A stretch of 64,000 bases of DNA from Acidimicrobiales bacterium (GTDB taxonomy: Bacteria; Actinomycetota; Acidimicrobiia; Acidimicrobiales; CATQHL01): NCBI GenBank assembly GCA_965242895.1, contig OZ251507.1, positions 2,592,286-2,656,285 of the forward strand. Direction: 5' to 3'. The notes under the pieces were generated by a model, which was not told the DNA's origin, made no database searches, and saw nothing but the letters and a program-made list of their open reading frames with translations. Of this stretch, positions 1,755 to 21,303 are shown in pieces. Every line of letters begins with the position of its first letter. The first letter of the stretch is position 1. A program made the translations under genes and the position numbers.

Positions 1755-1774
1755 CAAAGGCCTGTTGTCCTACA

Positions 1775-1994: not shown

Positions 1995-2125
1995 GTGAAT
2001 GACTTTCAAGCGCAAGTTGATCGAAGAGGCAGATGCCGCTGAGAGTGACATGGTGAGGGCGTGAACGTCTCTAAGCCGAAGTTGATCGGGGTGGCGGATA
2101 CCGCTGAGTGTGGCAAGGTGAGAGT
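1995..2125 (+). repeat. Two degenerate tandem copies (~65-bp period) of the methyltransferase start region upstream of paralogue 2
   Basis: GTGAATGACTTTCAAGCGCAAGTTGATCGAAGAGGC starts at 1995. GTGAACGTCTCTAAGCCGAAGTTGATCGGGGTGGCG starts at 2061. Both mimic the real start GTGAACGTCTATAAGCCGAAGCTGATTGAGGTGGCG at 2126. The 2061 copy opens a 22-codon uORF (VNVSKPKLIGVADTAECGKVRV) whose TGA (2127-2129) overlaps the GTG at 2126. Confidence 0.8.
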
Positions 2126-4966
2126 GTGAACGTCTATAAGCCGAAGCTGATTGAGGTGGCGCTGCCCCTCCATGCGATCAACAAGGCGTCGGCGCGGGAG
2201 AAGTCGATCCGGCATGGGCATCCGTCGACGCTGCATTTGTGGTGGTCGCGGAAGCCTTTGGCGGCTTGTCGGGCTGTGCTGTGGGCTTCGTTGGTGGATG
2301 ACCCGTCGGCGCACCCGGACAGGTTTCCGACCGAAGAGTCTCAGGTCGTGGAGCGCAAGCGCTTGTTCGGAATCTTGGAAGACTTGGTGGTTTGGGAGAA
2401 CAGCAACAATACGGATGTGCTAGCCGAGGCTAAGGCTGAGGTTGAGCGGTGTTTCCCAGGCGGGCCGCCGGCGGTGCTCGACCCGTTTGCCGGGGGTGGC
2501 TCCATTCCGTTGGAGGCTCAGCGGCTGGGGTTGACGGCGTTGGCCGGCGAGTTGAATCCGGTGGCGGTTTTGATCAACAAGGCGATGCTGGAGTTTCCGA
2601 CGCGTTTCGCAGGGCGACCGCCGGTGCATCCTGAGGCCAGAAGTGCTTCCAGCACGGGGAGCAGGGGGCGGGGGCGGCGTTCGGATCGATCCGAGGGCGC
2701 CGAGGGTGCTGATAGTGATTTCACCATGTGGAGCGGGGCGCAGGGGTTGGCTGCTGACATCAGGGCTTACGGGGCTTGGATGAGGGACGAAGCTCAGCGC
2801 AGGATCGGGCACTTGTACCCGGACGCTGTTGGCCCTGACGGGGAGAAGTTGACTCCGATTGCGTGGATTTGGGCTAAGACTGTGCGGTCTCCTGACCCAG
2901 CGTGGGAGGGGCATGTGCCGTTGGTTAGCTCGTGGACGCTTCGTAAGGCGATGCGAGGCAAGCCCGAGGTGTGGGTGGAACCGATCGTGGACAAGGCAGC
3001 TCAGAGTATTTCTTATCGTGTGAGAGAGGGCAGTGCCCCGCCGACCTTAGAACGCACTGTCAATAGGGGGAATGGGGTTTGCGTCGCCACTGGCGCGGCG
3101 ATTCCGGTGAACTACATAAGAACCGAGGGGCAGGCGGGGCGCATGGGTGCACATCTCTTGGCGGTCGTGGCTGAAGGGAATAGAAGACGTCAGTATTTTG
3201 AATCTTCAGCAGCGGATGTCAATGTCTGTCAGGCAGCAGCCGAACTTGCAGAGACTGGCTGGAAGCCTGCCGGCAACCTACCCCCCCGAGGAAAAGGGTT
3301 GGGGTTCAGCGTGCAAAACTATGGCTATGAGAAGTGGTGGCAGTTGTTCACCGACCGTCAACTCGTGGCCTTGACCACGTTTTCTGATCTCTTGGGTGAA
3401 GTCCGTGAACAGGTTCTTGATTGTGCGAGATACGCCGGTCTAGCAGACGATGGGGTTCGACTGCGGGACGGAGGAGCGGGTGCGGTCGCCTACGCTGACG
3501 CGGTTGTGACCTACTTGGCGTTCGTGGTCGATAAGTGTGCCGACTACTGGTCGAAAGTTAGTACTTGGATTAATTCCCGCGAAACAATTAGAAGTACGTT
3601 CGTACTGCCTGTCATCTCAATGTCTTGGGATTTTGCTGAAGTCAATCCGTTTTCTTCGTCTACAGGCAATTGGCTGGGACAACTAGAGTGGGTGTGCAGG
3701 GCTGTTGAGCGCCATCCGGCGAGAGGTGATGCGGAGGTTGAGCAGAAGGATGCTCGGGTAAGGACACAAGAATCAGTCGGGTGTTTGATCTCAACAGACC
3801 CTCCCAATTACGACAACATCGGCTATGCGGATATCTCCGACTTTTACTATGTGTGGCTGCGTCGTAACCTCGCTGATGTCTGGCCGGATGAGTGTGCCAC
3901 GCTGTTGTCGCCGAAAGTTGACGAACTAATCGCTGATTCCAGTCGTCATGGGGGCAGGAAGGAAGCTCAAGAACACTTCGAGTCGGGGATGGCCGAGTTC
4001 ATGGCTGCGGCTGCGGCATCGCAGCATCCTGATGTTCCTACCACTATTTACTACGCCTACAAAGCTACGGAAACTTCAGAAGAAGGCAGAGTGCGTTCGA
4101 CAGGTTGGGACACGTTCTTGCAGGCAGTAATCGATGCCGGTTTGCAAGTCACTGCTACTTGGCCTCTGCGAACAGAACGACAAATCAGATCACATTTCTT
4201 TGGTTCTACTGCCCTCGCTTCCTCGGTTGTTCTAGTTTGTCGTCCTCGCCCGGCGTCGGCTTCTCTCGCTACTCGAAGCGAGTTCATCGCTGCGCTTCGT
4301 GAAGAACTCCCGCGGGTGATCAAGCTCCTGCAGTCTGGCAACATTGCTCCCGTCGACTTGCCCCAGTCGACAATCGGCCCTGGCATCCAAGTGTTCTCCC
4401 GCTATGCCAGGGTTATCGAGGCCAGCGGTACGCGGATGCCTGTGAGCGACGCTTTGGCAATCGTCAACGAGGTGCTCGACGAGGTTCTCCACGGGGAGGA
4501 AACCGAGGTGGACGCTGAAACTCGCTTCGCCTTGGCTTGGTACACGCAGCACGGCTTCGAAGCCGGCCCGTTTGGTGGATTTGGTGGAGCGGAGTCCGTA
4601 GCTAGGGCAAAGAACACTGCCATTGAAGAGGTGATCAAAGCTGGGATAGGTGAAGCCACCGCTGGGAGGTTCCGTCTGTACGCTCGTTCGGAACTCGATC
4701 CCGACTGGGATCCCTCAAGCGGCACCAGTCTGATTGCTTGGGAGGCGCTCCAGCATTTAGCGGCGCGGTTAGAAAGGTCGGAGTCGCAGGCGGCTGATTT
4801 GCTTGCGCGCCTAGGAAGCACCGCCGACGGCGCCCGCCAACTCGCCTATCTCCTGCACAAGATTGCTAGCGGCAACCGCTGGGCGGAAGAAGCACTCACC
4901 TACAACAATCTCATAACTGTCTGGCCGATACTAATGATGTTTCCACGTGTGCAACTGACACTTTAG
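2126..4966 (+). CDS. DUF1156-family DNA methyltransferase, tandem paralogue 2 (motif IV reads DPPN instead of DPPY)
   Basis: N-terminus is VNVYKPKLIEVALPLHAINKASAREKSIRHGHPSTLHLWWSRKPLAACRAVLWASLVDDP (DUF1156 signature). Motif I is DPFAGGGSIPLEAQRLG. Motif IV is STDPPNYDNIGYA. The ORF track starts at GTG 2108; I prefer GTG 2126 by alignment with paralogue 3 (MSTYRRKLIEV). Confidence 0.85.
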   Translation: MNVYKPKLIEVALPLHAINKASAREKSIRHGHPSTLHLWWSRKPLAACRAVLWASLVDDPSAHPDRFPTEESQVVERKRLFGILEDLVVWENSNNTDVLAEAKAEVERCFPGGPPAVLDPFAGGGSIPLEAQRLGLTALAGELNPVAVLINKAMLEFPTRFAGRPPVHPEARSASSTGSRGRGRRSDRSEGAEGADSDFTMWSGAQGLAADIRAYGAWMRDEAQRRIGHLYPDAVGPDGEKLTPIAWIWAKTVRSPDPAWEGHVPLVSSWTLRKAMRGKPEVWVEPIVDKAAQSISYRVREGSAPPTLERTVNRGNGVCVATGAAIPVNYIRTEGQAGRMGAHLLAVVAEGNRRRQYFESSAADVNVCQAAAELAETGWKPAGNLPPRGKGLGFSVQNYGYEKWWQLFTDRQLVALTTFSDLLGEVREQVLDCARYAGLADDGVRLRDGGAGAVAYADAVVTYLAFVVDKCADYWSKVSTWINSRETIRSTFVLPVISMSWDFAEVNPFSSSTGNWLGQLEWVCRAVERHPARGDAEVEQKDARVRTQESVGCLISTDPPNYDNIGYADISDFYYVWLRRNLADVWPDECATLLSPKVDELIADSSRHGGRKEAQEHFESGMAEFMAAAAASQHPDVPTTIYYAYKATETSEEGRVRSTGWDTFLQAVIDAGLQVTATWPLRTERQIRSHFFGSTALASSVVLVCRPRPASASLATRSEFIAALREELPRVIKLLQSGNIAPVDLPQSTIGPGIQVFSRYARVIEASGTRMPVSDALAIVNEVLDEVLHGEETEVDAETRFALAWYTQHGFEAGPFGGFGGAESVARAKNTAIEEVIKAGIGEATAGRFRLYARSELDPDWDPSSGTSLIAWEALQHLAARLERSESQAADLLARLGSTADGARQLAYLLHKIASGNRWAEEALTYNNLITVWPILMMFPRVQLTL

Positions 4967-5148
4967 TTTCGCGCCGAGTAAGAACCTGTTGCCACACTGG
5001 ACAGGGAAACTAATTCCGCTAAGGGCGAGAATGGGGGGCGATGCGTTGGCGGTGCTCGCGAGGTCTTCTAGGTGGGTAACTTCTTGCAGGTTGTCATTGC
5101 GTCTAGTTACGGCAACGTGATGCTCAAAGTCTTAGAGTGGCAAGGTGA

Positions 5149-8070
<2,922 letters not shown>

Positions 8071-8323
8071 ACGGGTTCTAGAGGTCGAACGGGGACATCG
8101 AACCCCGTCGGAGGCTAGGCGCCCAAGGTCGAGGAAACTCCCGATGTTCTAGACCGCAGGCCGTTCTTGGTCTGATCGGCCAAGGCGCCTGCTGGGGGTA
8201 TCCGGCCTTGCTCGCTACCGATACTTGTGCAAGGAGTTGTCGGCGATGGGGGGTATCAAGACATCTGCCTATGGCCGTGCTAGCGCTGGCAGCCCATCGA
8301 TTTGCTTGATGAAACGCAAAGTA

Positions 8324-8352
8324 TTGCGATAGTTACACTTTTCTTTGATAGT
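8324..8352 (+). promoter_or_regulatory. Putative sigma70-like promoter of the XRE-ImmA gene
   Basis: TTGCGA (8324-8329), then 17 nt, then GATAGT (8347-8352), in an AT-rich stretch. A purine-rich RBS AAGAAGGGG lies 7 nt before ATG 8387. This is a pattern match only. Confidence 0.3.
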
Positions 8353-8386
8353 ATGTAAATAATGCCACAAAAAGAAGGGGCTACAC

Positions 8387-9622
8387 ATGGAAAATTTACA
8401 TACAACACTTATGAGAGCACGAGAGCGAATTGGTTATTCACAAGAAGCAATTGGAGCCGCGCTCGGAATCAGCCGAGCCATGGTTTCTTACTGGGAGACA
8501 GGCAGCCGCAAGCCGAACGACCGCCAACTCAACGCCCTTGCGCGCCTTTACGAAGTGGAGTTGGCCGATCTGCTGGCGGGCCGCAACATTGAACCGGCGG
8601 GCGCAAACCTTGCTGAGCTGATGTTACGCGCCAATGGAGGAGTCGACCCTGCTTCGTCGCCGGGTATCCATGAGTTTGTTGGTTTCCTGGAACGCCACGC
8701 TGAACTAGCGGAGATGTTGCAACTGCCTATTCGCGGCATGCGAGAAAGTCCGTTCACATTTCGGGAAGAATTCTCGGCAAAGAGTGATATAAGCCGAAAG
8801 GCCGAGGAAGTGCGCGCACATCTTCGCCTTGGCATTGCGCCTATTTATGACCTCGACGTGATATGTGAGACATTGGGAATAACGCTCTACAGGGCGTCTC
8901 TTGGAGGAGACTTGCGCAGGTTTCCGTCAGGGGCGTTCCTAAAGCACCCCGAGGTGGGGTTTTCAATTCTTGTGAACTTAGACATGACGCCAGGGCGCCG
9001 TCGTTTTACTATCGCACATGAACTTGCGCACGCTCTCTTCCACAGTCACGACAACCCTGCGCTGGTTTCGCAGACGGGCGCCTCAGGCGCCTCAAGGGAG
9101 GCGTTCGCTGACGAATTTGCGGGCGAATTCCTTATGCCTAGAGAGGGAGTTCGTCAATTCATGGAGAGGATGGATATGCCGCGGCGTGTGAGCGACCCCG
9201 TGGAAGCAATCCACATTCAGCGGTATTTCCGCGTTTCATGGGCGACAACACTTGTGCGGCTATATCAGATGAACACACTCTCCGAAAGCGATTTTCAGCA
9301 ATTTAGAAGAGAAGTGAAGCCGGTGTTTCTAGCGCGTTCTCTGGGATACGAGATATATCCGGAAGAACTCAAGCAATTCCCCGAACTTTGGACACTCCGC
9401 AGATTTCCCAGGCTGTTCCTACGCATGCTGCGAAAGGCGGTTCGTGACGAGATGATGTCGATCTCGACAGCGGCATCGTTTGCTGGTCTAGCCGTGCCTG
9501 ATGTCGTCAACCTCATCGGAGGGCCAGGGTCAGGTGCTAGCGAAACCGAGGTGAACGATCACGCTGTTGAGTTTGAAGAATACGAATCAAGCGACATAAT
9601 CTCGTTCGCACAGGCTGCGTAG
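8387..9622 (+). CDS. XRE-family HTH fused to an ImmA/IrrE-type (COG2856, M78-like) zinc metallopeptidase domain
   Basis: The N-terminal HTH is LMRARERIGYSQEAIGAALGISRAMVSYWETGSRKPNDRQLNALARLY. The HEXXH motif is in FTIAHELAHALFH, followed by ADEFAGEFLMP. Confidence 0.8.
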   Translation: MENLHTTLMRARERIGYSQEAIGAALGISRAMVSYWETGSRKPNDRQLNALARLYEVELADLLAGRNIEPAGANLAELMLRANGGVDPASSPGIHEFVGFLERHAELAEMLQLPIRGMRESPFTFREEFSAKSDISRKAEEVRAHLRLGIAPIYDLDVICETLGITLYRASLGGDLRRFPSGAFLKHPEVGFSILVNLDMTPGRRRFTIAHELAHALFHSHDNPALVSQTGASGASREAFADEFAGEFLMPREGVRQFMERMDMPRRVSDPVEAIHIQRYFRVSWATTLVRLYQMNTLSESDFQQFRREVKPVFLARSLGYEIYPEELKQFPELWTLRRFPRLFLRMLRKAVRDEMMSISTAASFAGLAVPDVVNLIGGPGSGASETEVNDHAVEFEEYESSDIISFAQAA

Positions 9623-9818
9623 ATTATGGGCGAATTACTTGCCCCAAGAGATGAGAGACAAAGGCTTCTGGGATACTGAGCCGCCTTTTCCAGGCGCCGG
9701 AAACTGAGTAGCCTGTTGCCATATGAATCTGGAAACTAAAGGGCAACGCCTGGGCTCGCATCCAGTTTCGAAAAAGAAAGATTCGCAGAACTAGCTGACA
9801 GCATAGGGGAATCAACAG

Positions 9819-12800
9819 ATGGCAACGATGACCAACAACGCAAGGGTCGCAAAAGCGCTCGAATTATTGCGCGACGGGCTAGCGCCCAAGTGCGAAGAGA
9901 CATGGAAGGGGTTCTACGGGGGCGGCTGGCTGAAGACCGTCAACCGCATGCAGCGCACACAGGCTCACGATCCCTCCACAAGCGATGTGTCCTTCCTGCT
10001 TAACGCGATCAAATCCACTTGGGATGAAGTGTTTTCACATGGCTTCCCGAGGGCGGTGCTCTCCCTGGTTTTTGAAGCGGCGACGGCGCGCAATCGATGG
10101 GCGCACCAGGAACAGTTCTCCAGCGACGACACCAATCGTGCGCTGGACACCATGGAGCGCTTGCTCGATGCGTTCGGCAATGTCGAGCAGCAGCAACAGA
10201 TGCGCAGTCTGCGGCGTGACCTGATGCGCCGCGTCTTTGAGCAGGAATCGCATAACGAGCGTCGCAAAGCTTCCGCCAAACCCACAGAGGGGGAGCCTCA
10301 AGGGGGGCTGACGCCATGGCGAGAGATCATCACCCCGCACGAGGACGTGCGTTCAGGGCGTCTCAACCAGGCCGAGTTTGCAGCTGACCTGCACGAAGTC
10401 GCCTCAGGTCGGGGCGAGGAGGAATACGGAGACCCTAAGGCGTTCTTTGCTCGAACCTACATGACCAGGGGTTTGGAAGACCTTCTAGTGGGGGCTGCGC
10501 GGCGTCTCTCCGGCGGGGCCGGCGAACCGGTCATTCAGCTGCAGACCAACTTCGGAGGCGGTAAGACGCACAGCATGATCGCCCTCTATCACCTCGCTTC
10601 CGGTGTTCCGCCCAGTGAGTTGCCCGGGGTGGGGGAGTTGCTGTCCGGTGAGAACTTGACGCTGCCATCGGAGATCAGCAAGGCCGTGCTAGTGGGTCAT
10701 AAAATCTCGGTGTCCACGCCAGAGACGGAGGACATGGAGGGGAGAACGCTTCCCGACGGCATCAGGCTGCACACGCTCTGGGGCCACTTGGCTTATCAAC
10801 TCGGCGGGAAGGAAGGTTACGAACTCGTTCGAGCCGACGATGAGGCTGCAACCAACCCAGGTGACTCCCTTCGGGCTTTGTTCACCCGGTTCGGCCCTGC
10901 CGTGGTGCTCATCGACGAGTGGGTTGCCTACGCCCGTCAACTTCCTGACGGAGGGTCGGGGTGGCGTGCGCGTGAGGCGGGAGGCGATTTCGACACGCAA
11001 TTCACCTTCGCCCAGGCGCTCACCGAAGCGGCGGCTGCGGTTTCGAACGTGGTTGTGCTTATCACAGTACCGGCTTCCGACATCGAGGTGGGAGGTGAGC
11101 TGGGCAGGTCTGCCTTGGCACGGCTGGAGAACGTGGTCAGCCGCACGGCTAAGCAGTGGCAGGCGGCCTCGCCTGCGGAGTCCTTCGAGATCGTCCGTCG
11201 GCGGCTATTCGACGAGATTGCAGCAGACAAGGTGAAGATGCGCGACGCCGTGATCGCCGCTTTCAGCAAGTGGTACGGCGACAAAGCGAGAGCGCCCGAT
11301 TTTCCCATCGAGGTCAAGGAAGCGGAGTACCGGCGCAAGATGGAAGCTTGCTATCCCATCCACCCCGAACTCTTCGACCGGCTGTTTGGGGATTGGTCTA
11401 CCCTCGACAAGTTCCAGCGCACCCGCGGGGTTCTGAGGTTAATGGCCCTGGCTATCTCCGAATTGTGGAAACGGGGCGACCAGTCTCTGCTGATAATGCC
11501 TGGCAACCTGCCGATGGACTCGGGGGTGTTGGTCAGCGAGATGACGAAATACCTGGAAGATGGCTGGGACCCGGTTATCAAGACCGACATCGACGGTGAA
11601 GGTTCCCTCCCGCTCCGTCTTGACAGGGAAAATAAACACTTCGGGCGTTATTCCGCCGCCCGCCGCGCAGCCCGCACCGTTTATATGGGTTCTGCACCTG
11701 GGGGAGAGGGTATAGAAGGTGGGGTGCAACGCGGTATCGACCTCAAGCGGGTGGTGTTGGGTTGCGTCCAGCCGGGTGAGCCGCCTAACCAGTTCGTCGA
11801 CGCTCTCAGGCGGTTGTCGGGGTCGGATGCAGCCACGTATTTGTATGTGGACGGCGCTTCGTACTGGTACTCGCGGCAGATCAACGTCGCGCGTCTGGCT
11901 CGAGACAGGGCAGAGGGATATCTTGACAGGGACGCCGACGAGGAGGTGCGGAAACGGATCGAAAGGCAGTCCGGTCGGGGGAGGAGAGGAAGTTTCTCTG
12001 CAGTACAGGTGTTTGCCGAGGGGCCGGGGGACGTGCCCGACGATGACGACGGTGTGAGACTCGTGGTCTTGACCCCCGAGAAGACCCACTCGAGGGGTGA
12101 CGAGCATTCTCAGGCGTCTGGCTTAGCGGGGGAGATATTGAACCAGCGAGACGCCGGACCGAGGCTGAATCGCAACATGCTGGTGTTCACGGCGGCGGAC
12201 GCAAACCGTCTGATAGACCTGCGCGCAGCGGCAAAGTCTTTCATGGCGTGGAAGTCGATAGACGAAGAAGCCGAGACTCTGAACCTGACCGCCCACCAGA
12301 ACAAGCAGGCCGATACCAAGTCCAAGGAAACCGACGAGCAGGTTGAAAGTCAGATCGCGGAGACTTTCATCCTAGTGCTCACCCCTAAGGGAAAGCCAGG
12401 CACTTCGGAGATCGATTGGCAGACCACCCGCGTGTCGCCGAGCAGTAAAGAGAGGTGGCTGGCAGCGCGTGTGAGCAGGAAACTGGAGAGCGAGGAGAAA
12501 CTGATCTCCACCTACGGAGGGGTGCGGGTGAAGATGGACTTGGATCGTTTCAAGCTGTGGTCGGAGCGGGGCGACCTGCAAGTGCGGACGCTCTGGGAGA
12601 AGTATGCGAGATTCCTGTATATGCCCAGGCTGGCCTCTTTGAAGTTCCTGCTGGAAGCAGTAGGCGATGGGCCGGGGAGCACGATGTGGAGGGAGGAGAC
12701 CTTCGCCTACGCCGAAGCCTGGGACGAGCAGAGGGAGACCTGGGTAGGAGTGCGCTCCGGTGCGCGGGCGAATGCGAACATAAGCGGATTTGTGGTGCAG

Positions 12801-13205
12801 AGCGAGCGCCTGCCGTTACCAGAAGAGGCGGATGCGCCTGGAGCGCTCTTCCCCGGCGCCGACGAGGGTGCGTCTGGAGCGGCCGTGCCAGGGGAGACTC
12901 CTGGAACGGTCGCCCAAGCCGGAGGACAGGGTTCGAACGTCCAGCAAAAAATCCTAACTGTGCCCCAAAAACCCAAGCTGACAAGGTTCTACGCCCAATT
13001 CGACCTAGACTCCACCCGCCCCATCAAGCAGCTAGGCGAGATACTCGAGCACGTAACTCACCACCTAGGGTCAGACGTGGAGTTGTCGCTAGAGATAAAT
13101 GCCAAGAGCCCCGAAGGCTACGACGACAACACCCGACGAGTAGTCTCGGAAAACTCCATCCAGCTAGGAGCAAAAGGCGCCGAATTCGAAGACCAAGAGG
13201 AGTAA
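9819..13205 (+). CDS. DUF499-family P-loop ATPase with N-terminal Swt1-like HEPN domain
   Basis: The HEPN Rx4H motif is in ATARNRWAHQEQFS. Walker A-like motif is TNFGGGKTHSM and Walker B-like motif is AVVLIDEWVAY. The large size and the position next to DUF1156 genes fit the known DUF1156/DUF499 pairing. Confidence 0.75.
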   Translation: MATMTNNARVAKALELLRDGLAPKCEETWKGFYGGGWLKTVNRMQRTQAHDPSTSDVSFLLNAIKSTWDEVFSHGFPRAVLSLVFEAATARNRWAHQEQFSSDDTNRALDTMERLLDAFGNVEQQQQMRSLRRDLMRRVFEQESHNERRKASAKPTEGEPQGGLTPWREIITPHEDVRSGRLNQAEFAADLHEVASGRGEEEYGDPKAFFARTYMTRGLEDLLVGAARRLSGGAGEPVIQLQTNFGGGKTHSMIALYHLASGVPPSELPGVGELLSGENLTLPSEISKAVLVGHKISVSTPETEDMEGRTLPDGIRLHTLWGHLAYQLGGKEGYELVRADDEAATNPGDSLRALFTRFGPAVVLIDEWVAYARQLPDGGSGWRAREAGGDFDTQFTFAQALTEAAAAVSNVVVLITVPASDIEVGGELGRSALARLENVVSRTAKQWQAASPAESFEIVRRRLFDEIAADKVKMRDAVIAAFSKWYGDKARAPDFPIEVKEAEYRRKMEACYPIHPELFDRLFGDWSTLDKFQRTRGVLRLMALAISELWKRGDQSLLIMPGNLPMDSGVLVSEMTKYLEDGWDPVIKTDIDGEGSLPLRLDRENKHFGRYSAARRAARTVYMGSAPGGEGIEGGVQRGIDLKRVVLGCVQPGEPPNQFVDALRRLSGSDAATYLYVDGASYWYSRQINVARLARDRAEGYLDRDADEEVRKRIERQSGRGRRGSFSAVQVFAEGPGDVPDDDDGVRLVVLTPEKTHSRGDEHSQASGLAGEILNQRDAGPRLNRNMLVFTAADANRLIDLRAAAKSFMAWKSIDEEAETLNLTAHQNKQADTKSKETDEQVESQIAETFILVLTPKGKPGTSEIDWQTTRVSPSSKERWLAARVSRKLESEEKLISTYGGVRVKMDLDRFKLWSERGDLQVRTLWEKYARFLYMPRLASLKFLLEAVGDGPGSTMWREETFAYAEAWDEQRETWVGVRSGARANANISGFVVQSERLPLPEEADAPGALFPGADEGASGAAVPGETPGTVAQAGGQGSNVQQKILTVPQKPKLTRFYAQFDLDSTRPIKQLGEILEHVTHHLGSDVELSLEINAKSPEGYDDNTRRVVSENSIQLGAKGAEFEDQEE

Positions 13206-13259: not shown

Positions 13260-14081
13260 TCATTGGTCAAAATCAAGTAGGGTATTCTGCAGAGATTTTG
13301 GAGGCCAAAAAATTCCCAGAATCAAAAAAGATTTAGGGTGGATTTTTTGGTTGCCAACAAAAAGGACTGTGTCGCGGTCGTCAGACCATATCTCATCACA
13401 AAATTTCTTTTGCATCTTTTGTTTCCAGTCATTCGCATTCTTTACTTTCCTATACAAAGCAGAAATCTCCCAGTCGACGATGCTCTGCTCATGGCTTTTG
13501 CATTCTGGAGCAAGACAATAATATTTATACTTAAATTTCCAGGGTCTAAATTCGAGAGGTATTGCTTTGCTAGCTGGAGTATCGAAAAGATCTTGCTGGC
13601 CGGTGATTGACTCCAATTTTGTTGTAAAAGCACGCTTTTCCTTTTCGGTTCGTTTGGAGATAAGTAGCTTTGGTTTTTCCTTGGCCCTAACGATCGATAG
13701 TGAAGGCCTGGATTTTCCTGTTTTAGACGTAGCACCTTTCCTCAGGTCGCACATAGTAAACTCATCAAGTTGTTGCACTCGCTCACGACGTAGTGCCCAA
13801 TTCTTTGCGTCAATCAACTTACCAGTTTTTATTGTGTCAAGAATAGGGGTTCGAGATTCTTGCCTCGTGTCATCTCTTGGACGCGTCACCTCTAACTCGA
13901 TTTCCTGATACTTCTTGAATTTGGATTCATCGTCCAGATCACGGAACGGGGTCGGGAAAAGACGTATCCATTTTGGTTTTTCGTCAAGGGTCATACCTGC
14001 CACACATACGGCTTCTTCTTTGGAGGCCAAGATAGGAGCAGCTTTGACGAGTATCATCAATTTAAGTTGTTCGCTAGTCAT
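13260..14081 (-). CDS. Hypothetical protein (273 aa), family not recognised
   Basis: Clean AT-rich ORF. Features: LFPTPFRDL, KYKYYCLAPECKSHEQSIVDWEISALYRKV, a C-terminal FVGNQKIHPKSFLILGIFWPP, and possible C-x3-C-x2-H metal ligands. Confidence 0.6.
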   Translation of the reverse strand: MTSEQLKLMILVKAAPILASKEEAVCVAGMTLDEKPKWIRLFPTPFRDLDDESKFKKYQEIELEVTRPRDDTRQESRTPILDTIKTGKLIDAKNWALRRERVQQLDEFTMCDLRKGATSKTGKSRPSLSIVRAKEKPKLLISKRTEKEKRAFTTKLESITGQQDLFDTPASKAIPLEFRPWKFKYKYYCLAPECKSHEQSIVDWEISALYRKVKNANDWKQKMQKKFCDEIWSDDRDTVLFVGNQKIHPKSFLILGIFWPPKSLQNTLLDFDQ

Positions 14082-14106
14082 TACTGCCAGTTTAGTTGCA
14101 CGAAAC

Positions 14107-14352
14107 TTATATGGGCAGGATTTCCGTTGCCGGATTGCGTGCTCGGATGTTGTCAGTTATCACCGAGCGGTGGCATTCGGAGTGCTCTCGCTCGAACCAG
14201 AGGAGTGCCACACGGTGTTTAGCAATCAACTCGAGAATCTACTAAAAAGCCTTTTGAGCTGTTCTGCAGCAGATGCTCGCAGCATTTTCTTGCCGTTTCT
14301 GATCCGCTTTGAAATCCGTCGCGGTGATCCCGAGGGTTGTCCAAAGACCTCG
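14107..14352 (-). pseudogene. 5'-truncated, frame-disrupted fragment of a DUF488 paralogue
   Basis: The minus strand reads DNPRDHRDGFQSGSETARKCCEHLLQNSSKGF, then a frame break, then ILELIAKHRVALLWFEREHSECHRSVITDNIRARNPATEILPI stop. This is collinear with the C-terminal half of the intact DUF488 gene at 18282-18743. Confidence 0.8.
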
Positions 14353-14415
14353 TCACACGCGTGAACTCACAGCACTACCGCTATTGTCCTCTCTGATAGT
14401 GGAGGGGTTGGCTGC
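14353..14415 (+). pseudogene. Fragment homologous to the 3' end of the SLOG-like gene
   Basis: ACGCGTGAACTCACAGCACTACCG...TCTCTGATAGTGGAGGGGTTGGCTGC aligns with 21237-21297 (ACGCGTGAACTCACGGCAGTACCC...TCTCTTATCGTGGATGCGTTGGCTGG). Identity is about 70-75% by eye with a 1-nt indel. Confidence 0.6.
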
Positions 14416-14487
14416 AAGGTCTCAAAGGCTTAGCCTTGCTCCTTCAGTTGCCGGTTGCTGATGCGCTTCTTTGCCCAGTTAGCTCAG

Positions 14488-17400
14488 TCAATCGATATCT
14501 GACCCCTCTTCTTCAGGTGCGATTTCGAGCCCTCGTTCACGAAGAGCAGTTTCTAAGCGCTCGTACTCGGGCGTCCCGCTGAGTTCTTGAGCCGATTCGA
14601 GGGCTTGACAAGCGTAGTCATTTGCTCTGGACATTGTGTCCAGAGAGTTGTTTACACGAATCAAATAGTTGAATATCTCTAAGCAACTTTTCTTGTCCTC
14701 AAGCTTTAGTGCTCGTTCTGTGACCTGGCGTTCCGCATTGATGTGGCCGCCAGTTAATTTCAGAGTTTCTAAAGTTCGTCTAGCCCATTGTGCGTCGTCT
14801 ATAGAGAATACTTCGGAATACCAACCGAAGCCTCTAAGATGCTTCGGTTCCTTCAGTTCTAACACCTTGCCCCAAAAGCAGTCGGCGATCCTGGCCATTT
14901 TGTGTCTTTGAGGGTCGATTACGGCTCGCAGGTATTTCCCAATTCGTTCGCCGGCGTAGGAGATTGCCGTGATTTCTCTCTGCCATGGGGCGGCAGGATC
15001 TGGTAATTTTCTTGCTGTCTTCGGAGGAACTTGATCGAGAAAATCGATAACTCCTTTGACAGAGTATCCCTCGTGTTCTCGAAGCATGCCCACTAGATAA
15101 TAGAACAAAGATTCCGGGACGTGCCTCTTGACGGAATTTTCGATCATCTCTCTGTAATTCCTAAACAGCCAGTCGCTCGGCTGCCCTCTACTGAAGGTCT
15201 GCTCAACGGTTCGTTGAGCGAGCCCGTCGGGGGCATGCTCACCGAATATTAAATCACGCGTATTCTCAAGCCATTCTGGCGCTAAGTGCTCTAGCCAGTC
15301 CAGAGTAGGGGCGATGATCGCTCGGCACTCAATGCCATCCTGTCCGCCAAGTTGTAGGCAGTCTTCCAGAATTTGGAGAGTTTCTGGTCGTACAATCTTG
15401 AATTTGTTGTATTCGTATCTTGAAAAGAACAATAGTGAAAGCAGGGCATAGGTGCATGTGCGGTCGAAAGCAATTCTGAACGTATCGAGGCGAAGATCGG
15501 AATACATCCTTGATGGTTCTGAGCGATCCTCGATTTGCTGTTTTAGTATGTTCCATACTCTGTCTCGGCGATTTCCATAACCGATTTCCGAATTGGCAAG
15601 GACGTCGATAAGTTCGATACTGGCACGCTTCGTTTTGTTCCAGTTTATGTCGTAGTCGGACTGACTATTCCCGAGCGGCTCGACATCCTGGGGCTCACTA
15701 TAAATCGTTTCGACAAAGTCAATCAGTTCAGCAATTTGTTGGTCGCTGGGTTTAACATTCCCATTGTTGATCGCTGATGCAATTCCACTAAGATAGTGGT
15801 GAATATAAGTGGGGTGACGGAGTGTTTCCAGAATACTCTGAGGAGACTTCAACCATTCGTTTGGACTTGCCTGTACCGTCGAAAGGAGTGCGGCTCCTAG
15901 TTCGTGGGGAGTCTGGACGATTTCCCGATCTGACTGCGAAGAGACCTTAGGTCTCCAAGCGGCGATTAGTGAAGCTGCTTCTTCGGGGGCAAGCTTCTGC
16001 AATTCTTCAGCACTGAATGGGCTTGTAGTCATGAAATATTCTGTTTTGAAGGCGAACTCAAGGTCGTGCCGGTTGTGCGGCAAATGCAGTTTTGCCAACT
16101 CTTGGAGCGCCAGTTCCCAGTCTTGGCGGAGGTTGTCCAACAGCTTCTCGTTCTGGCTTGAATCTTCTGTCAGTATGTTGACCCAGTCCAGCTTTCTGCG
16201 CCATTCATCGGGTATGAAGTTTTCTGATATCGCATCTTTGATTTTTTCCGAATTCGGAGCATCATCCAGCGCTTCGTTCCAAATAGGGGCGAATTCGCTG
16301 TTTTCGCAATCTTTTACAATGCGATTAAGTAGCGATATGTGGTCGCCAGTAACCTTGTGGGATTTGATTGCTTCAGCGATTTCCCTGATGCGTGTTCCAT
16401 TCTGGGCGCTGTCGGAAGTAGCGAGAAGCCAAGCTCGAACTCGCTGCTGCATGAAAGGTGGCAGTTCGGATAGGCTTTCAATTAGCTCTTCGGCTGTAGT
16501 CCAGGATTGGGACTTTTGAAGGATTGTTAGCAGACCGTTCAGTAGAACTGAGAAAAAACCATTGTAATCAGTCCTGCGAACACTTACCTCACCCTCAGTG
16601 GCCTTGTAATCACTTACTGAGCCTTCTTGAAAGTGTTCTAGCCTGCGACGTGTGCGCTTGTTTTCAGGAACGCCCTTAAGTTTGTAACAGATAAGTTCAG
16701 TTCGCGTGGCATAGTTAGATTCAGTAATGCCTTCAGCGAATGCCTCTATCAATTTGGTGTTATTGTGCAGCGACATAGAGTCTTCAATAAATCTAGGTGG
16801 GTTTGGACTGACTAATTTGTCAAAGAGATTTGTCAGCAAGTTACTTGCGGGTTCGGCCTTCGCAGAAGCCCAATATCCTAGTTCGACGATCTCTGGCCTC
16901 GCCGGAAAGTTCAAAACAGCTTTTAGCACGATGGGCAGAGCATCTGCTCCTATATGAAAGGCGCATAGGGTGATATGCCAGATTGTTTCGTGCTCGTTCT
17001 TGTATTTTTCAAGTAATGTGTCGAGCAGGTCAACTATCTCGGTAGGGAATTCTTGATACAGGTTTTTAAGTGCGTAAGATGCCGGCCAAAATTCTCCAGG
17101 AGGTCCAGGTCTATATATTGGTGGATCGATTATGTCGGTTTCTAGCAGTACTTTAAGCCAATCCAAAGAAGACAGATGCTCAAAAAAATGTCTGTAGTGA
17201 GTCGCCGTAACAGCGTATTGCCGCAGTTGCTTAATGTCATCTTCAGTTGGCGCTTCGATCCTTGCTAACGATTCCAATTTGCGAATTCGCTTTGCTGGCG
17301 GCATGAATAGTGCTTCGAATGCTTTCAGACACTCTGACCATTTAGCTTGAGTTTCTTGAAGGGTTGCTTCAGTATGAAGTTGGTGGTTGAGCTCTTTATG

Positions 17401-17913
17401 TACTGCAATGAAGTGTTTTAGGGCAGGGGTTTTATCCTTTGGAAGATAACTTGTTCGAGCCTCAATAATATTTTGCAATTTCCTATAATCAGTGTCTTTG
17501 GTTTGGAATTTTCTTAGCTCATCGAGACTTTTTCGGAAATTGTCGTATGCTTCTTCTTTATTTTGTTGAGAATCGTAACGGGCACTTTCAGATTTATGTT
17601 GAGCTGAGGCGACCTTGCGCGTAAGTTGTCCTATGGTGGGCGTTTTTTGGGCATGCGGGAGGGTGAGAAGCTCTTCGGGGGCTTCCAGCAGAGCAGTCAT
17701 TGCTTGGCGTAAAGAATATGCGACCAGTTCAGCAGTACTGGGTGCTGCCAGTTCAACAGTGCTGGGTATAGTCGCATTATTCATTTCTAAGAGCACCTGT
17801 GCAGTTCCCAAGAATACACTTGCCCTCTTGCCCATATCCCCGAATTCTTCTTCAAGGTGAGTTAGGAATTGAGGATCAAGCTTTTTCAGTATTGGTTTTG
17901 CGATTGTTTTCAT
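14488..17913 (-). CDS. Large all-helical protein of unknown family, paralogue 1 (1,141 aa)
   Basis: Collinear with 21857-25234 and 26350-29718. Shared blocks include HITLCAFHIGADALP, ELICYKLK, FFS[IV]LLNGLLTIL, DEWRRKLDWVNILT and ADCFWGKVLE.K.PKHL.GFGWYSE.FSIDD.QWA.RTLETL.LTGGHIN. I found no Walker A, HExxH or other catalytic motif. Confidence 0.8.
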   Translation of the reverse strand: MKTIAKPILKKLDPQFLTHLEEEFGDMGKRASVFLGTAQVLLEMNNATIPSTVELAAPSTAELVAYSLRQAMTALLEAPEELLTLPHAQKTPTIGQLTRKVASAQHKSESARYDSQQNKEEAYDNFRKSLDELRKFQTKDTDYRKLQNIIEARTSYLPKDKTPALKHFIAVHKELNHQLHTEATLQETQAKWSECLKAFEALFMPPAKRIRKLESLARIEAPTEDDIKQLRQYAVTATHYRHFFEHLSSLDWLKVLLETDIIDPPIYRPGPPGEFWPASYALKNLYQEFPTEIVDLLDTLLEKYKNEHETIWHITLCAFHIGADALPIVLKAVLNFPARPEIVELGYWASAKAEPASNLLTNLFDKLVSPNPPRFIEDSMSLHNNTKLIEAFAEGITESNYATRTELICYKLKGVPENKRTRRRLEHFQEGSVSDYKATEGEVSVRRTDYNGFFSVLLNGLLTILQKSQSWTTAEELIESLSELPPFMQQRVRAWLLATSDSAQNGTRIREIAEAIKSHKVTGDHISLLNRIVKDCENSEFAPIWNEALDDAPNSEKIKDAISENFIPDEWRRKLDWVNILTEDSSQNEKLLDNLRQDWELALQELAKLHLPHNRHDLEFAFKTEYFMTTSPFSAEELQKLAPEEAASLIAAWRPKVSSQSDREIVQTPHELGAALLSTVQASPNEWLKSPQSILETLRHPTYIHHYLSGIASAINNGNVKPSDQQIAELIDFVETIYSEPQDVEPLGNSQSDYDINWNKTKRASIELIDVLANSEIGYGNRRDRVWNILKQQIEDRSEPSRMYSDLRLDTFRIAFDRTCTYALLSLLFFSRYEYNKFKIVRPETLQILEDCLQLGGQDGIECRAIIAPTLDWLEHLAPEWLENTRDLIFGEHAPDGLAQRTVEQTFSRGQPSDWLFRNYREMIENSVKRHVPESLFYYLVGMLREHEGYSVKGVIDFLDQVPPKTARKLPDPAAPWQREITAISYAGERIGKYLRAVIDPQRHKMARIADCFWGKVLELKEPKHLRGFGWYSEVFSIDDAQWARRTLETLKLTGGHINAERQVTERALKLEDKKSCLEIFNYLIRVNNSLDTMSRANDYACQALESAQELSGTPEYERLETALRERGLEIAPEEEGSDID

Positions 17914-17915
17914 TC

Positions 17916-18095
17916 TTGACCTCTGATTAGTCGAGGATGCTGCGATTTGCTGTCTTGGATCATCATGAGTAGTAGATTTCCTTGTGAATATTAAGGCATT
18001 TTTCCCACATTTGTTCTACTTCTCTTCCCGATGTCCTTTCATGTACACCTTTTTGGGCCTGTTTGATGAGGTCAACTTGCTTTCGAGCGCCCCTA
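17916..18095 (-). pseudogene. C-terminal remnant of the small helical partner gene
   Basis: The minus strand reads RKQVDLIKQAQKGVHERTSGREVEQMWEKCLNIHKEIYYS stop (TGA at 17963-17965). This matches DDLIKKVQEGVHKKISGKEVEEIWKECLCIHRKIY of 25236-25856. Only the last ~45 codons survive. The AATCAGAGG junction before the large-gene ATG is retained. Confidence 0.75.
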
Positions 18096-18134
18096 CCAAC
18101 GCGGCCGCAACGCGGAATCGAGGGGTTGCAGTGT

Positions 18135-18265
18135 TTCTAGTTGACTTCGAGCACCCTGACACAGCCTGTCATTCCGCCTGGGTTCCTGCTCCCGCGTGAG
18201 CAAGAAGTTGGCAGGCGAGGAGAAGTTGATTTCTTTCTACAGCGGAGTCTGGATCAAGATGGACT
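18135..18265 (+). pseudogene. Short fragment of a second DUF499-type gene
   Basis: GTGAGCAAGAAGTTGGCAGGCGAGGAGAAGTTGATTTCTTTCTACAGCGGAGTCTGGATCAAGATGGACTTGGAACGT aligns at ~75% by eye with 12471-12548 of the intact DUF499 gene. The peptides are SRKLESEEKLISTYGGVRVKMDLDR (intact) and SKKLAGEEKLISFYSGVWIKMDLER (fragment). Confidence 0.65.
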
Positions 18266-18281
18266 TGGAACGTACAGAAAC

Positions 18282-18743
18282 TTAAACGGGCAGGATTTCC
18301 GTTGCCGGGTTGAGCGCTTGGATGTTGTCGGTTATCACCGAGCGGTGGCATTCGGAGTGTTCCCGCTCGAAGCAGAGGAGCGCCACACGGTGTCTAGCCA
18401 TTAACTCGAGTATCGATTCAAAGGCCTCTTTCGAGCCGTTCAGCAGCAGATGCTCGTAGCGCTTTCTTGCCGTTTCTGACCCGTTTTGAAATCCGTCTCG
18501 GTTATCCCGAGGATTGCCCAAAGACGGCTCGTGCCTGTAAACGATCCCTCTCTCGCCGAGAGCCTCCGCAAGTGCCTTTTTCGAGAATCCTTTCTTGCGG
18601 GAAATAGGGGTCAGTCTGACATCCACGAGGATGTCAATTTCGCTGTCAACAAGTCGGGTGAGAAAGTCTTCCAAGCAAAGCCCTTGATACCCAGCCGAAA
18701 AGATGGTTCCGCCGGCTCCGTCGTTCCCGATCTCCGGCGGCAT
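18282..18743 (-). CDS. DUF488 family protein
   Basis: TIFSAGYQGLCLEDFLTRLVDSEIDILVDVRLTPISRKKGFSKKAL and ALLCFEREHSECHRSVI match the DUF488 signature as I remember it. Confidence 0.75.
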   Translation of the reverse strand: MPPEIGNDGAGGTIFSAGYQGLCLEDFLTRLVDSEIDILVDVRLTPISRKKGFSKKALAEALGERGIVYRHEPSLGNPRDNRDGFQNGSETARKRYEHLLLNGSKEAFESILELMARHRVALLCFEREHSECHRSVITDNIQALNPATEILPV

Positions 18744-19115
18744 TCGCCCACCCTACACGACTTTGCACAATTTATACACATTCAATCCAATTAGGTGCGG
18801 GGAGCAGCGAAAGACAGAGCAGTGAAGGTCGGTGTGCGGTTCGTCGATTCCACAACCGAGAGACAGGAGACCACCAGTGTGAAAGACAGGGCAGTGAAGT
18901 TCGGTGTGCGCTTCCTTTACAGGTGGGTTTCACCGACGAGCGCAGCAGCTGCAGTTCTCAGGTGCATCTGAGGCTCTGGCTCAGTAGCGCTAAGCGAGAG
19001 TGGGTTGGGAGCGTTGCTATCTGTCCAACCATTGGATAGACTACATCAGTGTGATTTACGAAGGTCACAGATTTCAGATTTAGGTACAGTGCAAGATCAG
19101 AAAGGTAGGTCGAAA

Positions 19116-19493
19116 ATGGCCAAGAAGCGTGTGTTCGTGAGCTTTGACTACGACAACGACAAAGATCTCAAGGAGTTATTGGTTGGACAAGCGAGGAACC
19201 CTGATTCCCCATTCGAGGTTATCGATCATTCTCTGAAGGAGGCTCAGCCAGAGAAGGACTGGGAAGAGAAAGCCGAGATGGCTATCAAGCGTGCGGAATT
19301 CTTCATTGTGATGCTCGGCTCTCGCACAAGGTGGGCATCTGGGGTACTTAAAGAGGTGAAGATTGCTCAGAAACTCAATAAGAAGAAATTTCAACTAATT
19401 GGCCGTCCAGAGGGATCTGAGTCGTGGGCTGTGCCAGGAGGTGGAAGGACTTACAGGTGGGCATGGCCGAATCTCAAGAATTTGTTGAGCTAG
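19116..19493 (+). CDS. TIR-like domain protein (DUF1863 / MTH538-type, ThsB-like)
   Basis: MAKKRVFVSFDYDNDKDLKELLVGQ... then FFIVMLGSRTRWASGVLKEVKIA. RBS AAAGGTAGG lies upstream of ATG 19116. The ORF-track start at 19005 is probably too early. Confidence 0.7.
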   Translation: MAKKRVFVSFDYDNDKDLKELLVGQARNPDSPFEVIDHSLKEAQPEKDWEEKAEMAIKRAEFFIVMLGSRTRWASGVLKEVKIAQKLNKKKFQLIGRPEGSESWAVPGGGRTYRWAWPNLKNLLS

Positions 19494-19510
19494 AAGAAAG
19501 GCAGTCTGTG

Positions 19511-20680
19511 ATGACACGGCCGTATGAAGTTGTAATCGTCCACGAGGATCTTGACGATTGGGCTAGGGAAGTTAAGGAGTCCGTAAGGGAGACTGGCGAG
19601 ACAATTCTTTCTCAGTCTGAGGCGATCGGTTGCAGGGAAGTCAATTCTCGTGATGACTTATGTGAACTAAGTAATCCGGAGCATCATGTCGTCGTGCTCT
19701 ATTTGGGGAACAGAGCTGGAGGTCAAAGTGAAGCGATTAATTCGGCTCTCAATATGGCGCTAGAGAATTCAATATCGGTTCTACCAGTGGTGAGACAATC
19801 TGATCCTGGCGATGTTGAGGAAAAGCTGCCCCAGTCTGTGCAATTGCTTAATGCAGCAGATTGGAATGAAGATCGCGGTCGGGCGCTTACTGCTTTGCGG
19901 CAGATGCTTGGACTAGAGGAGTCGGAGCGCAAAGTATTTATATCTTATTCTCGTCAGGAATCTAGCGAAATAGCGTTTCAGCTGCACGACGCTTTATCCA
20001 GGCGCAAGTTCGACGTGTTTCTGGATCGATTCAGTGTGCAGCCTGGAGAAGATTTTCAGCGGAAGCTTGATCAGGAGCTGGCAGACAAGGCTTTTGTTGT
20101 GCTTCTCGAGAGCCCAGGTGTTCGAGAATCGAGATGGATTCAGCATGAGATTTCCTACGCACTCGATCACCGCATCGGTGTCTTGGCAGTCACGATGCCG
20201 AGTGTCGGGTCGGAATCGGTCTCCGTTGTGCACGAAGCTTTCCGCTTGCGTCTTTGTCCTACCGAGTTTGCCGGCGGAGGAGAACTAACAGATAAAGCCC
20301 TTGAGAGGGTTTTAAGCGAAATAGAACTCAGACATGCTCAAGCGCTACGAAGACGACGGGAGCAACTTCTAGGAAGTCTGCGTGAGAAGCTGGTCAAGGA
20401 CGGGGGCTGCTGTCGCCCCGCGGCAGATTGGGCGGTTGTCGCATCGGTGCCGGGAGAGGGAACTTCAGCGTTTCTGATAACACCTAGGAGTCCATGCCCT
20501 AGCGATCTCTACCGCCTCTACCAAATTCGCTCCAACGCCGTTTCCTACGCTGGCAGCGACCTAAAAGCAGTACTTGTTCACGCAACCGAGAACATCAGTT
20601 GTGAACAAGAATCTCTGATTGATTGGGTCAAGGAAGGGTGGGGGTTGGATGTGCTGGTATTGCAAGACTTTAACTTTTAG
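19511..20680 (+). CDS. TIR domain protein with extra N-terminal (flavodoxin/TIR-like) and C-terminal unknown domains
   Basis: The central TIR is RKVFISYSRQESSEIAFQLHDALSRRKFDVFLDRFSVQPGEDF...AFVVLLESPGVRESRWIQHEISYAL, including an S-x-W-x3-E motif. ATG 19511 follows GAAGAAAGG. The 125-aa C-terminal region was not recognised. Confidence 0.75.
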   Translation: MTRPYEVVIVHEDLDDWAREVKESVRETGETILSQSEAIGCREVNSRDDLCELSNPEHHVVVLYLGNRAGGQSEAINSALNMALENSISVLPVVRQSDPGDVEEKLPQSVQLLNAADWNEDRGRALTALRQMLGLEESERKVFISYSRQESSEIAFQLHDALSRRKFDVFLDRFSVQPGEDFQRKLDQELADKAFVVLLESPGVRESRWIQHEISYALDHRIGVLAVTMPSVGSESVSVVHEAFRLRLCPTEFAGGGELTDKALERVLSEIELRHAQALRRRREQLLGSLREKLVKDGGCCRPAADWAVVASVPGEGTSAFLITPRSPCPSDLYRLYQIRSNAVSYAGSDLKAVLVHATENISCEQESLIDWVKEGWGLDVLVLQDFNF

Positions 20681-21303
20681 TGGATAATGGGGGTATGACC
20701 TCATTGGCTGGCAGCCATGTCTTCCTCTCAGCAAGTTTCCCTTCTGGCGAGAGGGGGCGGCAATTTGAGCCTTACAGCGCTCCCGCGATCGCTGACGCCG
20801 TTTCCGCTGTCGTGCGTGCCGTGCTGCGTAGTGAAGGCAAGTTGCTATTCGGCGGGCATCCGACGATCACTCCAATGGTTCTGCTGAATGGCTACGAGCT
20901 AGAAGTTGAGTGTGCTGTGGATATCTTTCAGTCGGAATGGTTTGAGGGCAGCATTACTGAAGAAACTCGCCAATTGATGGAATCAGGGGTGGGGGAAATC
21001 CATTGGACGGAAAAGAAAGACACACGGGAAAACAGTCTTGAGACAATGCGTAATGAGATGTTCAATTTCGTGCAGCCCGCAGGTGCTGTCTTCGTCGGGG
21101 GCATGGAAGGTATCCCGCTCGAATACGAGATGCTCGGCCGTCTCTGGCCAGACGTCCCGAGGGTTCCTCTTGCCGGTCCAGGCGGGGCGGCGGCCGACTT
21201 GGAGATCGATGAAAGTCTGCCCGAAGAACTCGCAGAACGCGTGAACTCACGGCAGTACCCGTTCTTGGCGTCTCTTATCGTGGATGCGTTGGCTGGCAGA
21301 TGA
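20680..21303 (+). CDS. SLOG/LOG-like Rossmannoid nucleotide-binding protein (putative)
   Basis: Two glycine loops typical of SLOG/LOG folds: KLLFGGHPTITPMVL and AVFVGGMEGIPLEYEML (GGxGxxxE-like). The start is GTG 20680, overlapping the upstream TAG, or ATG 20695. The stop overlaps the next gene's start (ATGA at 21300). Confidence 0.55.
   Translation: MDNGGMTSLAGSHVFLSASFPSGERGRQFEPYSAPAIADAVSAVVRAVLRSEGKLLFGGHPTITPMVLLNGYELEVECAVDIFQSEWFEGSITEETRQLMESGVGEIHWTEKKDTRENSLETMRNEMFNFVQPAGAVFVGGMEGIPLEYEMLGRLWPDVPRVPLAGPGGAAADLEIDESLPEELAERVNSRQYPFLASLIVDALAGR

Follow-up and report, generated by a model that had tools for sequence, protein, structure and literature searches.

Gene remnants around a predicted alpha-solenoid gene are probably scars of duplication and deletion in a multi-system defence island of an Acidimicrobiales bacterium

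How did pieces of four different genes come to surround a single large gene? The question is raised by a chromosomal island in an Acidimicrobiales bacterium (GenBank assembly GCA_965242895.1, contig OZ251507.1, positions 2,592,286 to 2,656,285), which we analysed as one stretch of 64,000 nt, hereafter the window. The island carries genes of the Hma and PDC-M19 systems, a type III Thoeris-like operon, and three copies of a two-gene unit encoding a large protein (Large) and a smaller partner (small). The first large gene, Large1 (14488..17913, minus strand), encodes a 1141-aa protein that has a hypervariable N-terminal domain and is predicted by AlphaFold2 (AF2) to be an all-alpha HEAT/karyopherin-like solenoid. 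Remnants of a DUF488 gene and a SLOG gene flank it on one side, and remnants of a small-partner gene and of the DUF499 gene hmaC on the other. We propose that these remnants are probably scars: an Hma-M19-Thoeris-Large block would have been duplicated in tandem and then reshaped by deletions, allele replacement, and unequal crossing-over. The original prediction, made from the letters of the window alone, held that the island was built by duplication and recombination. With the corrections given below, that core interpretation is supported: the island contains three Large paralogues, two copies each of DUF488 and HmaC, and three SLOG 3' ends.

The remnants were examined by BLASTN of the window against itself, by tblastn of the island proteins against the intergenic stretches, and with 300 dinucleotide shuffles per scar; all three agree that the four remnants exist. 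The predicted short matches proved significant in formal alignment, every one lying far above chance (z = 15-133 against the shuffles), and chance similarity was rejected as their source. The first remnant is a DUF488 pseudogene on the minus strand (14107..14353), 5'-truncated at residue 74. Its DNA (14102-14353) matches 18277-18532 at 86% over 256 nt (E 1e-81, z = 133), and at the protein level it corresponds to residues 74-153 of the 153-aa intact protein (78% identity). The frame is broken, as predicted, by a 2-nt deletion near 14252-14259 and by two in-frame TAG stops. Adjoining it on the plus strand is the predicted 3' tail of a SLOG (ThcA) gene, with coordinates now set at 14338..14414. 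This first tail matches 21218-21295 at 77% over 78 nt (E 7e-9, z = 19), its counterpart being the final ~80 nt of the SLOG gene at 20680-21303. Five related contigs (L001-L005) were compared with the window, all related sequences being metagenome contigs and most of them short; in L005 the tail can also be seen at the protein level (last 28 aa, E 2e-5). A spacer (14415..14487) between the SLOG and Large 3' ends is homologous, by alignment, in the third Large/small unit of the window and in L001, L002, L004, and L005.

On the far side of Large1, beyond a conserved small/Large spacer (17914-17962), lies the tail of small-partner gene 1 (17963..18076, minus strand), consisting of the last 36 codons and a stop codon at 17963-17965. 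Positions 18073-17972 match residues 160-193 of small3 (59% amino acid identity, E 4e-14, z = 28); the remnant is real, and had been drawn slightly too wide at 17916-18095. A filler (18077..18186) follows, which is also present in L001, where it has an extra local duplication of ~75 nt. Next comes a fragment of a second ('beta') HmaC gene (18187..18274, plus strand), collinear at both the DNA and protein level with an internal part of the full-length gene. It corresponds in frame to HmaC residues 883-910 (18190-18273, 28 codons, 68% amino acid identity, E 8e-9), and its DNA is 74% identical to the window's own HmaC over 81 nt (z = 15). This DUF499 fragment does abut the 3' flank of the intact DUF488 gene, as had been claimed, but it measures ~85 nt at 18187-18274 rather than ~130 nt at 18135-18265. 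Its end lies 3 nt short of 18277, where the homology with the DUF488 3' flank starts.

The neighbour of the DUF488 pseudogene accounts for its location. The gene at 13260..14081 (minus strand) encodes an intact 273-aa homologue of PDC-M19B (PADLOC PDLC04508, E 3e-43, residues 5-267 of 273), which the original prediction had not recognised, thereby overlooking that this gene and DUF488 belong together as a pair. The stop codon of the DUF488 remnant (14107-14109) lies 25 nt upstream of the M19B start codon (14081). M19B has 254 detectable homologues, and among 80 loci taken from species-representative genomes a DUF488 gene stands beside M19B in 79, directly adjacent in all but one. In the closest relatives (L006-L021) DUF488 precedes M19B on the same strand with a short gap, which is the geometry of the fragment in the window, and a metagenome-assembled genome of Acidimicrobiales (L012) has the order uninterrupted, with DUF488 and M19B running towards HmaC and HmaB on the opposite strand. 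The fragment therefore lies at 14107-14353 because the 273-aa neighbour is M19B, whose conserved partner is DUF488. It is the dead cognate partner (PDC-M19A) of M19B.

The intact DUF488 gene (18282..18743, minus strand) encodes a 153-aa PDC-M19A-like protein, the 'beta' copy (Pfam DUF488, E 1e-29; PADLOC PDLC04505, E 5e-36), and has lost its own M19B along with the HmaC 3' end. An HmaC fragment 3 nt from the DUF488 3' flank is what would be expected if M19B and the HmaC 3' end had been deleted from a second module in which HmaC converges on M19B and DUF488. PDC-M19 is a two-gene candidate in PADLOC-DB v2, comprising M19A, with a DUF488 domain, and M19B. Both window proteins match its models, but the pair has been split, with a dead DUF488 copy beside M19B and the only intact one 4.2 kb away, beyond Large1. 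M19B, DUF488, and Large1 are under purifying selection, as dN/dS falls between 0.2 and 0.36. The value for M19B is 0.29 between the window and L005 copies, that is, after its neighbour died; for the intact DUF488 it is 0.22 (95% amino acid identity to the L001 copy), and for Large1 0.27-0.36 (0.27 against L001). We found no experimental evidence for PDC-M19, which is a computational candidate only, and nothing functional of use here in the literature on DUF488.

Comparison with the related contigs reproduced two of the junctions and gives them a relative age. L005 is collinear with window positions 17142-13287 (84.5%) through Large1, the SLOG tail, the DUF488 fragment, and an intact M19B, and its DUF488 fragment shares the truncation point, a same-site indel, and one TAG stop with that of the window. 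The DUF488/SLOG join (junction A) therefore formed before the window and L005 diverged. L001 has the order HmaB, HTH-M78, HmaC, three unrelated genes, SLOG tail, Large1, small, HmaC fragment, DUF488, TIR1, TIR2, with Large1 91% identical to that of the window in nucleotides (90% in amino acids) and DUF488 94%. Because L001 has the HmaC fragment at the same place beside DUF488, this join (junction C) is also old. The small gene of L001 is intact (195 aa), and relative to L001 the window has undergone an 843-nt deletion (L001 2265-3107) that took the promoter region of small gene 1 and its first ~158 codons (junction B). Three of the four scars thus pre-date the split from related lineages, and only the small-partner deletion is specific to this genome.

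These recurrences bear on the suspicion that paralogous or strain-variant copies were simply mis-joined during assembly. The island does contain 4-kb repeats at 80-84% identity in a metagenome-type assembly, and junction B is seen only here. However, junctions A and C recur at 6-16% divergence in independent assemblies from other samples (L005 and L001), which excludes mis-assembly for both. The copies differ by 14-26%, far too much for assembler collapse or mis-joining, and the window proteins are encoded on a 2.78-Mb contig. We rejected an assembly chimera, the probability of which is negligible, with junction B resting on this assembly alone.

Junction A has the features of a classic microhomology-mediated join. 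Both parent genes contain TGCCC(A/G)AAGA, within ...GGATTGCCCAAAGACGG... in DUF488 and ...GTCTGCCCGAAGAACTCG... in SLOG, and the scar itself (~14338-14353), in which the SLOG tail is fused to the DUF488 remnant across TG(T/C)CC(A/G)AAGA, reads ...GGGTTGTCCAAAGACCTCG... One deletion in one copy of the island, starting midway through DUF488 and ending ~80 nt before the SLOG 3' end, would suffice to produce it. Junction B has a short CGAAAG microhomology. At junction C (18274/18277) no clear microhomology was found.

The HmaC fragment is 90% identical in nucleotides to the full HmaC of L005 and 74% to the window's own. Since it is so much closer to the L005 gene, a second HmaC allele must have existed, in agreement with the earlier claim that a second DUF499-type gene was once present. 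The window HmaC, in turn, is 86% identical to that of L001 but only 50-78% to that of L005. Moving left along the alignment with L005, identity drops from 85-90% to 50-77% at about 13800, inside M19B. This point is a recombination breakpoint, to the left of which the Hma side was probably replaced.

The same allele data could be read in another way, in which two islands that shared one architecture (Hma, PDC-M19, type III Thoeris, Large/small) but had been acquired separately and had already diverged were joined by horizontal transfer with homologous or illegitimate recombination and then trimmed, the second copy being imported. Two HmaC allele types do circulate, alpha in the window and L001 and beta in L005 and the fragment, and allelic replacement has a breakpoint inside M19B. 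The copies are also unevenly and rather weakly conserved (HmaC fragment 74%, SLOG tail 77%, Large 80%, DUF488 86%), the slot between HmaC and the SLOG tail carries other cargo in L001, and the GC content of the island (43-55%) is well below that of its flanks (60-68%). Uneven divergence, however, also fits relaxed selection on the fragments combined with later replacement of the Hma allele, and import would need an extra acquisition event while requiring just as many deletions. Further, there is no tRNA in or beside the island, and the flank and island ORFs scanned gave no integrase or transposase family match. We consider import doubtful, if still the main competitor, and favour tandem duplication in situ.

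Duplication is also evident to the right of the Thoeris-like operon, where two further units lie on the minus strand. Unit 2 (21857..26027) comprises Large2 (21857-25234) and small2 (25236-26027), and unit 3 (26350..30338) comprises Large3 (26350-29718) and small3 (29721-30338). Downstream of Large3 is another SLOG 3' tail, tail 3 (26251..26288, plus strand), which corresponds to 21267-21302 and marks the breakpoint of the Large2/Large3 tandem duplication. Taken alone this match is weak (z = 5.2), but unit 3 and L004 remain homologous across the spacer and on into the real SLOG gene of L004. Unit 3 requires no more than a plain segmental tandem duplication that had one of its breakpoints inside SLOG. 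Synonymous divergence (dS) is 0.56 between Large1 and either Large2 or Large3 and 0.35 between Large2 and Large3; between orthologues it is 0.17 (Large1-L001), 0.25 (Large3-L003), and 0.30 (Large1-L005). As the paralogues (0.35-0.56) are more diverged than the orthologues (0.17-0.30), the duplications pre-date the sampled lineages. The Large gene of L003 (196-3564) is chimeric, resembling Large3 over ~3.2 kb and Large2 over its last ~0.4 kb and the adjacent TIR3, which indicates unequal crossing-over between tandem paralogues. Another contig, L002, contains a decaying unit (3943-8172) in which Large is frameshifted (173 + 882 aa) and TIR2 is in three short fragments, while SLOG is intact and convergent.

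The last TIR gene of the operon, TIR3, had been described as missing beside Large1. It is indeed not there, but on parsimony a gain beside Large2 is more likely than a loss beside Large1, because the outgroup contigs L002 and L004 have no TIR3. In both, an intact SLOG gene converges directly on Large across a homologous spacer of ~60-70 nt. TIR3 is present in L003. It had further been claimed that a TIR/SLOG operon converging on a large gene existed at least twice, and that the two are inherited as one unit. A SLOG gene or tail is convergent on eight of eight Large genes of the narrow clade (the three window units and L001-L005), which bears out the recurrence, although unit 3 needs no further whole operon. 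The linkage is therefore real in this clade. It does not extend to the family as a whole, since no SLOG, TIR, DUF488, or Hma genes occur near the distant Large relatives (32-34% identity, L086-L089). What the linkage shows is co-inheritance, not shared function.

A further rival view is that the Large/small units are mobile cassettes, inserted repeatedly beside SLOG or DUF488 by a site-specific or transposition-like mechanism, with the SLOG tail as the cassette end. Each of the Large units has a SLOG 3' piece at its start, and its other end lies some 210-370 nt upstream of the small gene. In L001, moreover, three unrelated genes (6885-8878; 106 aa, 322 aa, and 204 aa) replace M19B and the DUF488 fragment, and this cargo swap ends within ~10 nt of junction A. 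The SLOG tails, however, vary in length (77 nt, ~38 nt, and in L001 a tail that begins ~10 nt later than in the window and is shorter by as much), which means that they share no fixed end. There was no sign of an integrase, a transposase, or terminal repeats, the microhomology between the parent genes at junction A is as expected of an illegitimate deletion, and distant small/Large modules exist without any SLOG piece. An integron- or transposon-like cassette was rejected for want of a fixed end, a recombinase, or terminal repeats, and we regard such a mechanism as highly unlikely. Among the three L001 genes, the 322-aa protein resembles ATP-grasp ribosomal-peptide maturases (TIGR04187, E 1.5e-33, under the curated cut-off).

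From the homologies, the junctions, their sharing with other contigs, and the signatures of selection, all of which are directly observed, we infer the order of events and the in-situ origin of the second copy. The ancestral block would have consisted of HmaC converging on M19B and DUF488, then a divergent type III Thoeris operon (TIR-TIR-SLOG) converging on Large and small. A tandem duplication would have had its left breakpoint at HmaC codon ~883 and its right breakpoint upstream of the small gene. In the left copy, microhomology-mediated deletion A would then have removed the 5' half of DUF488, both TIR genes, and most of SLOG. In the right copy, deletion C would have removed the HmaC 3' end and M19B, leaving 28 HmaC codons against DUF488. 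These reciprocal losses would leave the split pair seen today, intact M19B (13260-14081) and intact DUF488 (18282-18743) flanking Large1, both under purifying selection. Later, a diverged allele would have taken the place of the Hma side as far as position ~13800 in M19B. Large2 and Large3 would have come from a second segmental duplication, one of whose breakpoints fell within SLOG, and TIR3 would have been gained beside Large2. The window-specific 843-nt deletion of the 5' part of small partner 1 would have come last.

Several observations weigh against this history. The in-situ duplication is itself a reconstruction, and the joining of two separately acquired, diverged islands predicts the same scars. 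No source was identified for the filler at 18077-18186, which leaves the proposed duplication junction undemonstrated. The right edge of the unrelated three-gene cassette of L001, lying within ~10 nt of junction A, hints at repeated breakage there, which a simple model does not predict. Junction B is present in this assembly only, and the comparison depends on metagenome contigs that are mostly short. Finally, in L001 DUF488 has stayed intact and under selection on a 15-kb contig that has no M19B, so it is not secure that DUF488 and M19B act together in trans.

Tandem duplication, unequal crossing-over, and reciprocal (complementary) gene loss are known in defence islands and other multigene loci. 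The island shows their usual signs, namely diverged tandem paralogues, a chimeric orthologue (L003), a microhomology junction, and complementary loss of a duplicated pair. The mechanism is the same, and island growth here is conventional; only the genes, which are poorly characterised, are particular.

The Large proteins had no match in sequence searches of Pfam, NCBIfam, PADLOC, or the PDB. The AF2 model of Large1 is all helical but only moderate in quality (mean pLDDT 65, pTM 0.37), and Foldseek with this model returned weak, generic HEAT/karyopherin matches (TM below 0.3). On this model, Large1 is predicted to be an alpha-solenoid, and no closer identity is claimed. The close Large clade is tiny (seven clusters among 5.8 billion proteins), and a metagenome scan with its alignment found nothing. 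A profile search recovered 639 distant relatives of about 1050 aa; eight of these were searched against Pfam and gave no domain match. Their neighbourhoods are defence-like, with GmrSD/Schlafen-like genes, an SMC-like ATPase, toxin-antitoxin genes, and an integrase.

Although encoded as a separate protein, the small partner is paralogous to the N-terminal ~200 residues of Large (25% identity, E 7e-8), a kinship confirmed against the distant relatives (E 1e-16 to 4e-19). This region is hypervariable: Large1 is 49-56% identical in nucleotides to Large2 and Large3 here, compared with 70-90% elsewhere. Called ORFs upstream of or neighbouring the Large genes of L086, L087, and L088 gave no BLASTP match to small2 or small3, and tblastn found an uncalled small-like ORF upstream of the L087 Large gene (L087 6408-6947). 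small2 has a 58-residue N-terminal extension, and upstream of small3 a separate, unfused frame, ORF85 (30323-30580), is homologous to small2 residues 18-68. small2 and small3 therefore differ at their 5' ends because the homologue of the extension survives unfused upstream of small3.

The Thoeris-like operon (19005..21836, plus strand) encodes TIR1, TIR2, SLOG, and TIR3, with matches to Pfam TIR_2, ThsB_TIR, and LD_cluster3. The SLOG protein is ThcA (NCBIfam NF058525, 156 bits against a cut-off of 110, E 8e-46; Pfam LD_cluster3, E 1e-31), and the 418-aa TIR2 is ThcB4 (NCBIfam, 251 bits against a cut-off of 220, E 1e-74). TIR1 and TIR3 matched no NCBIfam ThcB model. In bioRxiv 10.64898/2025.12.03.692087, type III Thoeris is described, citing van den Berg et al. 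2024, as a ThcA SLOG protein with several TIR proteins (ThcB), and its signalling mode is reported as uncharacterised. The window operon resembles this system in combining several TIR genes, three in all, with one SLOG gene. It differs in that, within this clade, it is always convergent on a HEAT-like Large gene, with truncated ThcA 3' ends beside the extra Large copies. A more speculative proposal, which we think improbable, is that Large and small make up a new defence module of two genes whose function, in this clade, is coupled to that of type III Thoeris; they could, for example, be the missing sensor or effector working with the domain-poor ThcA. Such coupling would explain why the ThcA gene or its 3' end is kept at all eight Large genes of the clade, and why Large was amplified three-fold with diversified N-terminal domains.

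The left part of the island contains three tandem HmaB (DUF1156 methylase) paralogues on the plus strand, at 96-1754 (cut by the window start), 2108-4966, and 5149-8070 (PADLOC PDLC00660/00661, E 0 and 3e-300), roughly 72-75% identical to each other in nucleotides. L002 has two HmaB copies, one on each side of its Thoeris/Large unit. An HTH-M78 gene (8387-9622, plus strand; HTH and IrrE-like M78 peptidase) separates HmaB from the intact 'alpha' HmaC (9819..13205, plus strand; Pfam DUF499; PADLOC PDLC00662, E 7e-271), which converges on M19B. Hma is defined in PADLOC by the helicase HmaA, the DUF1156 methylase HmaB, and the DUF499 ATPase HmaC, of which the latter two match strongly here. No helicase ORF occurs in 1-13205, and since the window begins inside an HmaB paralogue, HmaA may lie upstream. 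The window locus differs in its three tandem HmaB genes, the HTH-M78 gene between HmaB and HmaC, and the 85-nt relic of a second HmaC allele. Neither the HTH-M78 gene nor the N-terminal Swt1-like HEPN domain of HmaC (9819-10170; Pfam HEPN_Swt1) is in the basic Hma description.

Genes for ZnuA, an ABC ATPase, FUR, an aminotransferase, and a DUF222-HNH protein lie in the flanks, in keeping with a chromosomal location. The DUF222-HNH gene and the taxonomy of the M19B relatives both point to a probable actinobacterial (Actinomycetota) host. Positions 12777-15979 of L002 match the DUF222-HNH gene region of the window (42680-45274) at 77-84%, so the islands of L002 and the window share a chromosomal neighbourhood; the window has about 11 kb of extra sequence between the island and this region. 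No Rfam family matched in 13-32 kb. A promoter and terminator scan found nothing above shuffle expectation, and between Large1 and M19B it gave no terminator on the minus strand. The divergent intergenic region between DUF488 and the first TIR gene contains a 34-nt direct repeat (91% identical; 18809-18842 and 18881-18914), which may act as an operator or promoter element. A 48-nt direct repeat (81% identical; 31722-31769 and 31837-31884) sits where the low-GC island ends on the right, just past a 320-aa ORF (30598-31560) to which no function is assigned.

The scars around Large1 amount to a dated, junction-level record of the remodelling of a multi-system defence island by segmental duplication, microhomology-mediated deletion, allele replacement, and unequal crossing-over. 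The physical locking of a small/Large solenoid module to type III Thoeris in one clade is a linkage worth testing. The splitting of a PDC-M19 pair after reciprocal loss, in turn, raises the question of whether DUF488 and M19B can work in trans.

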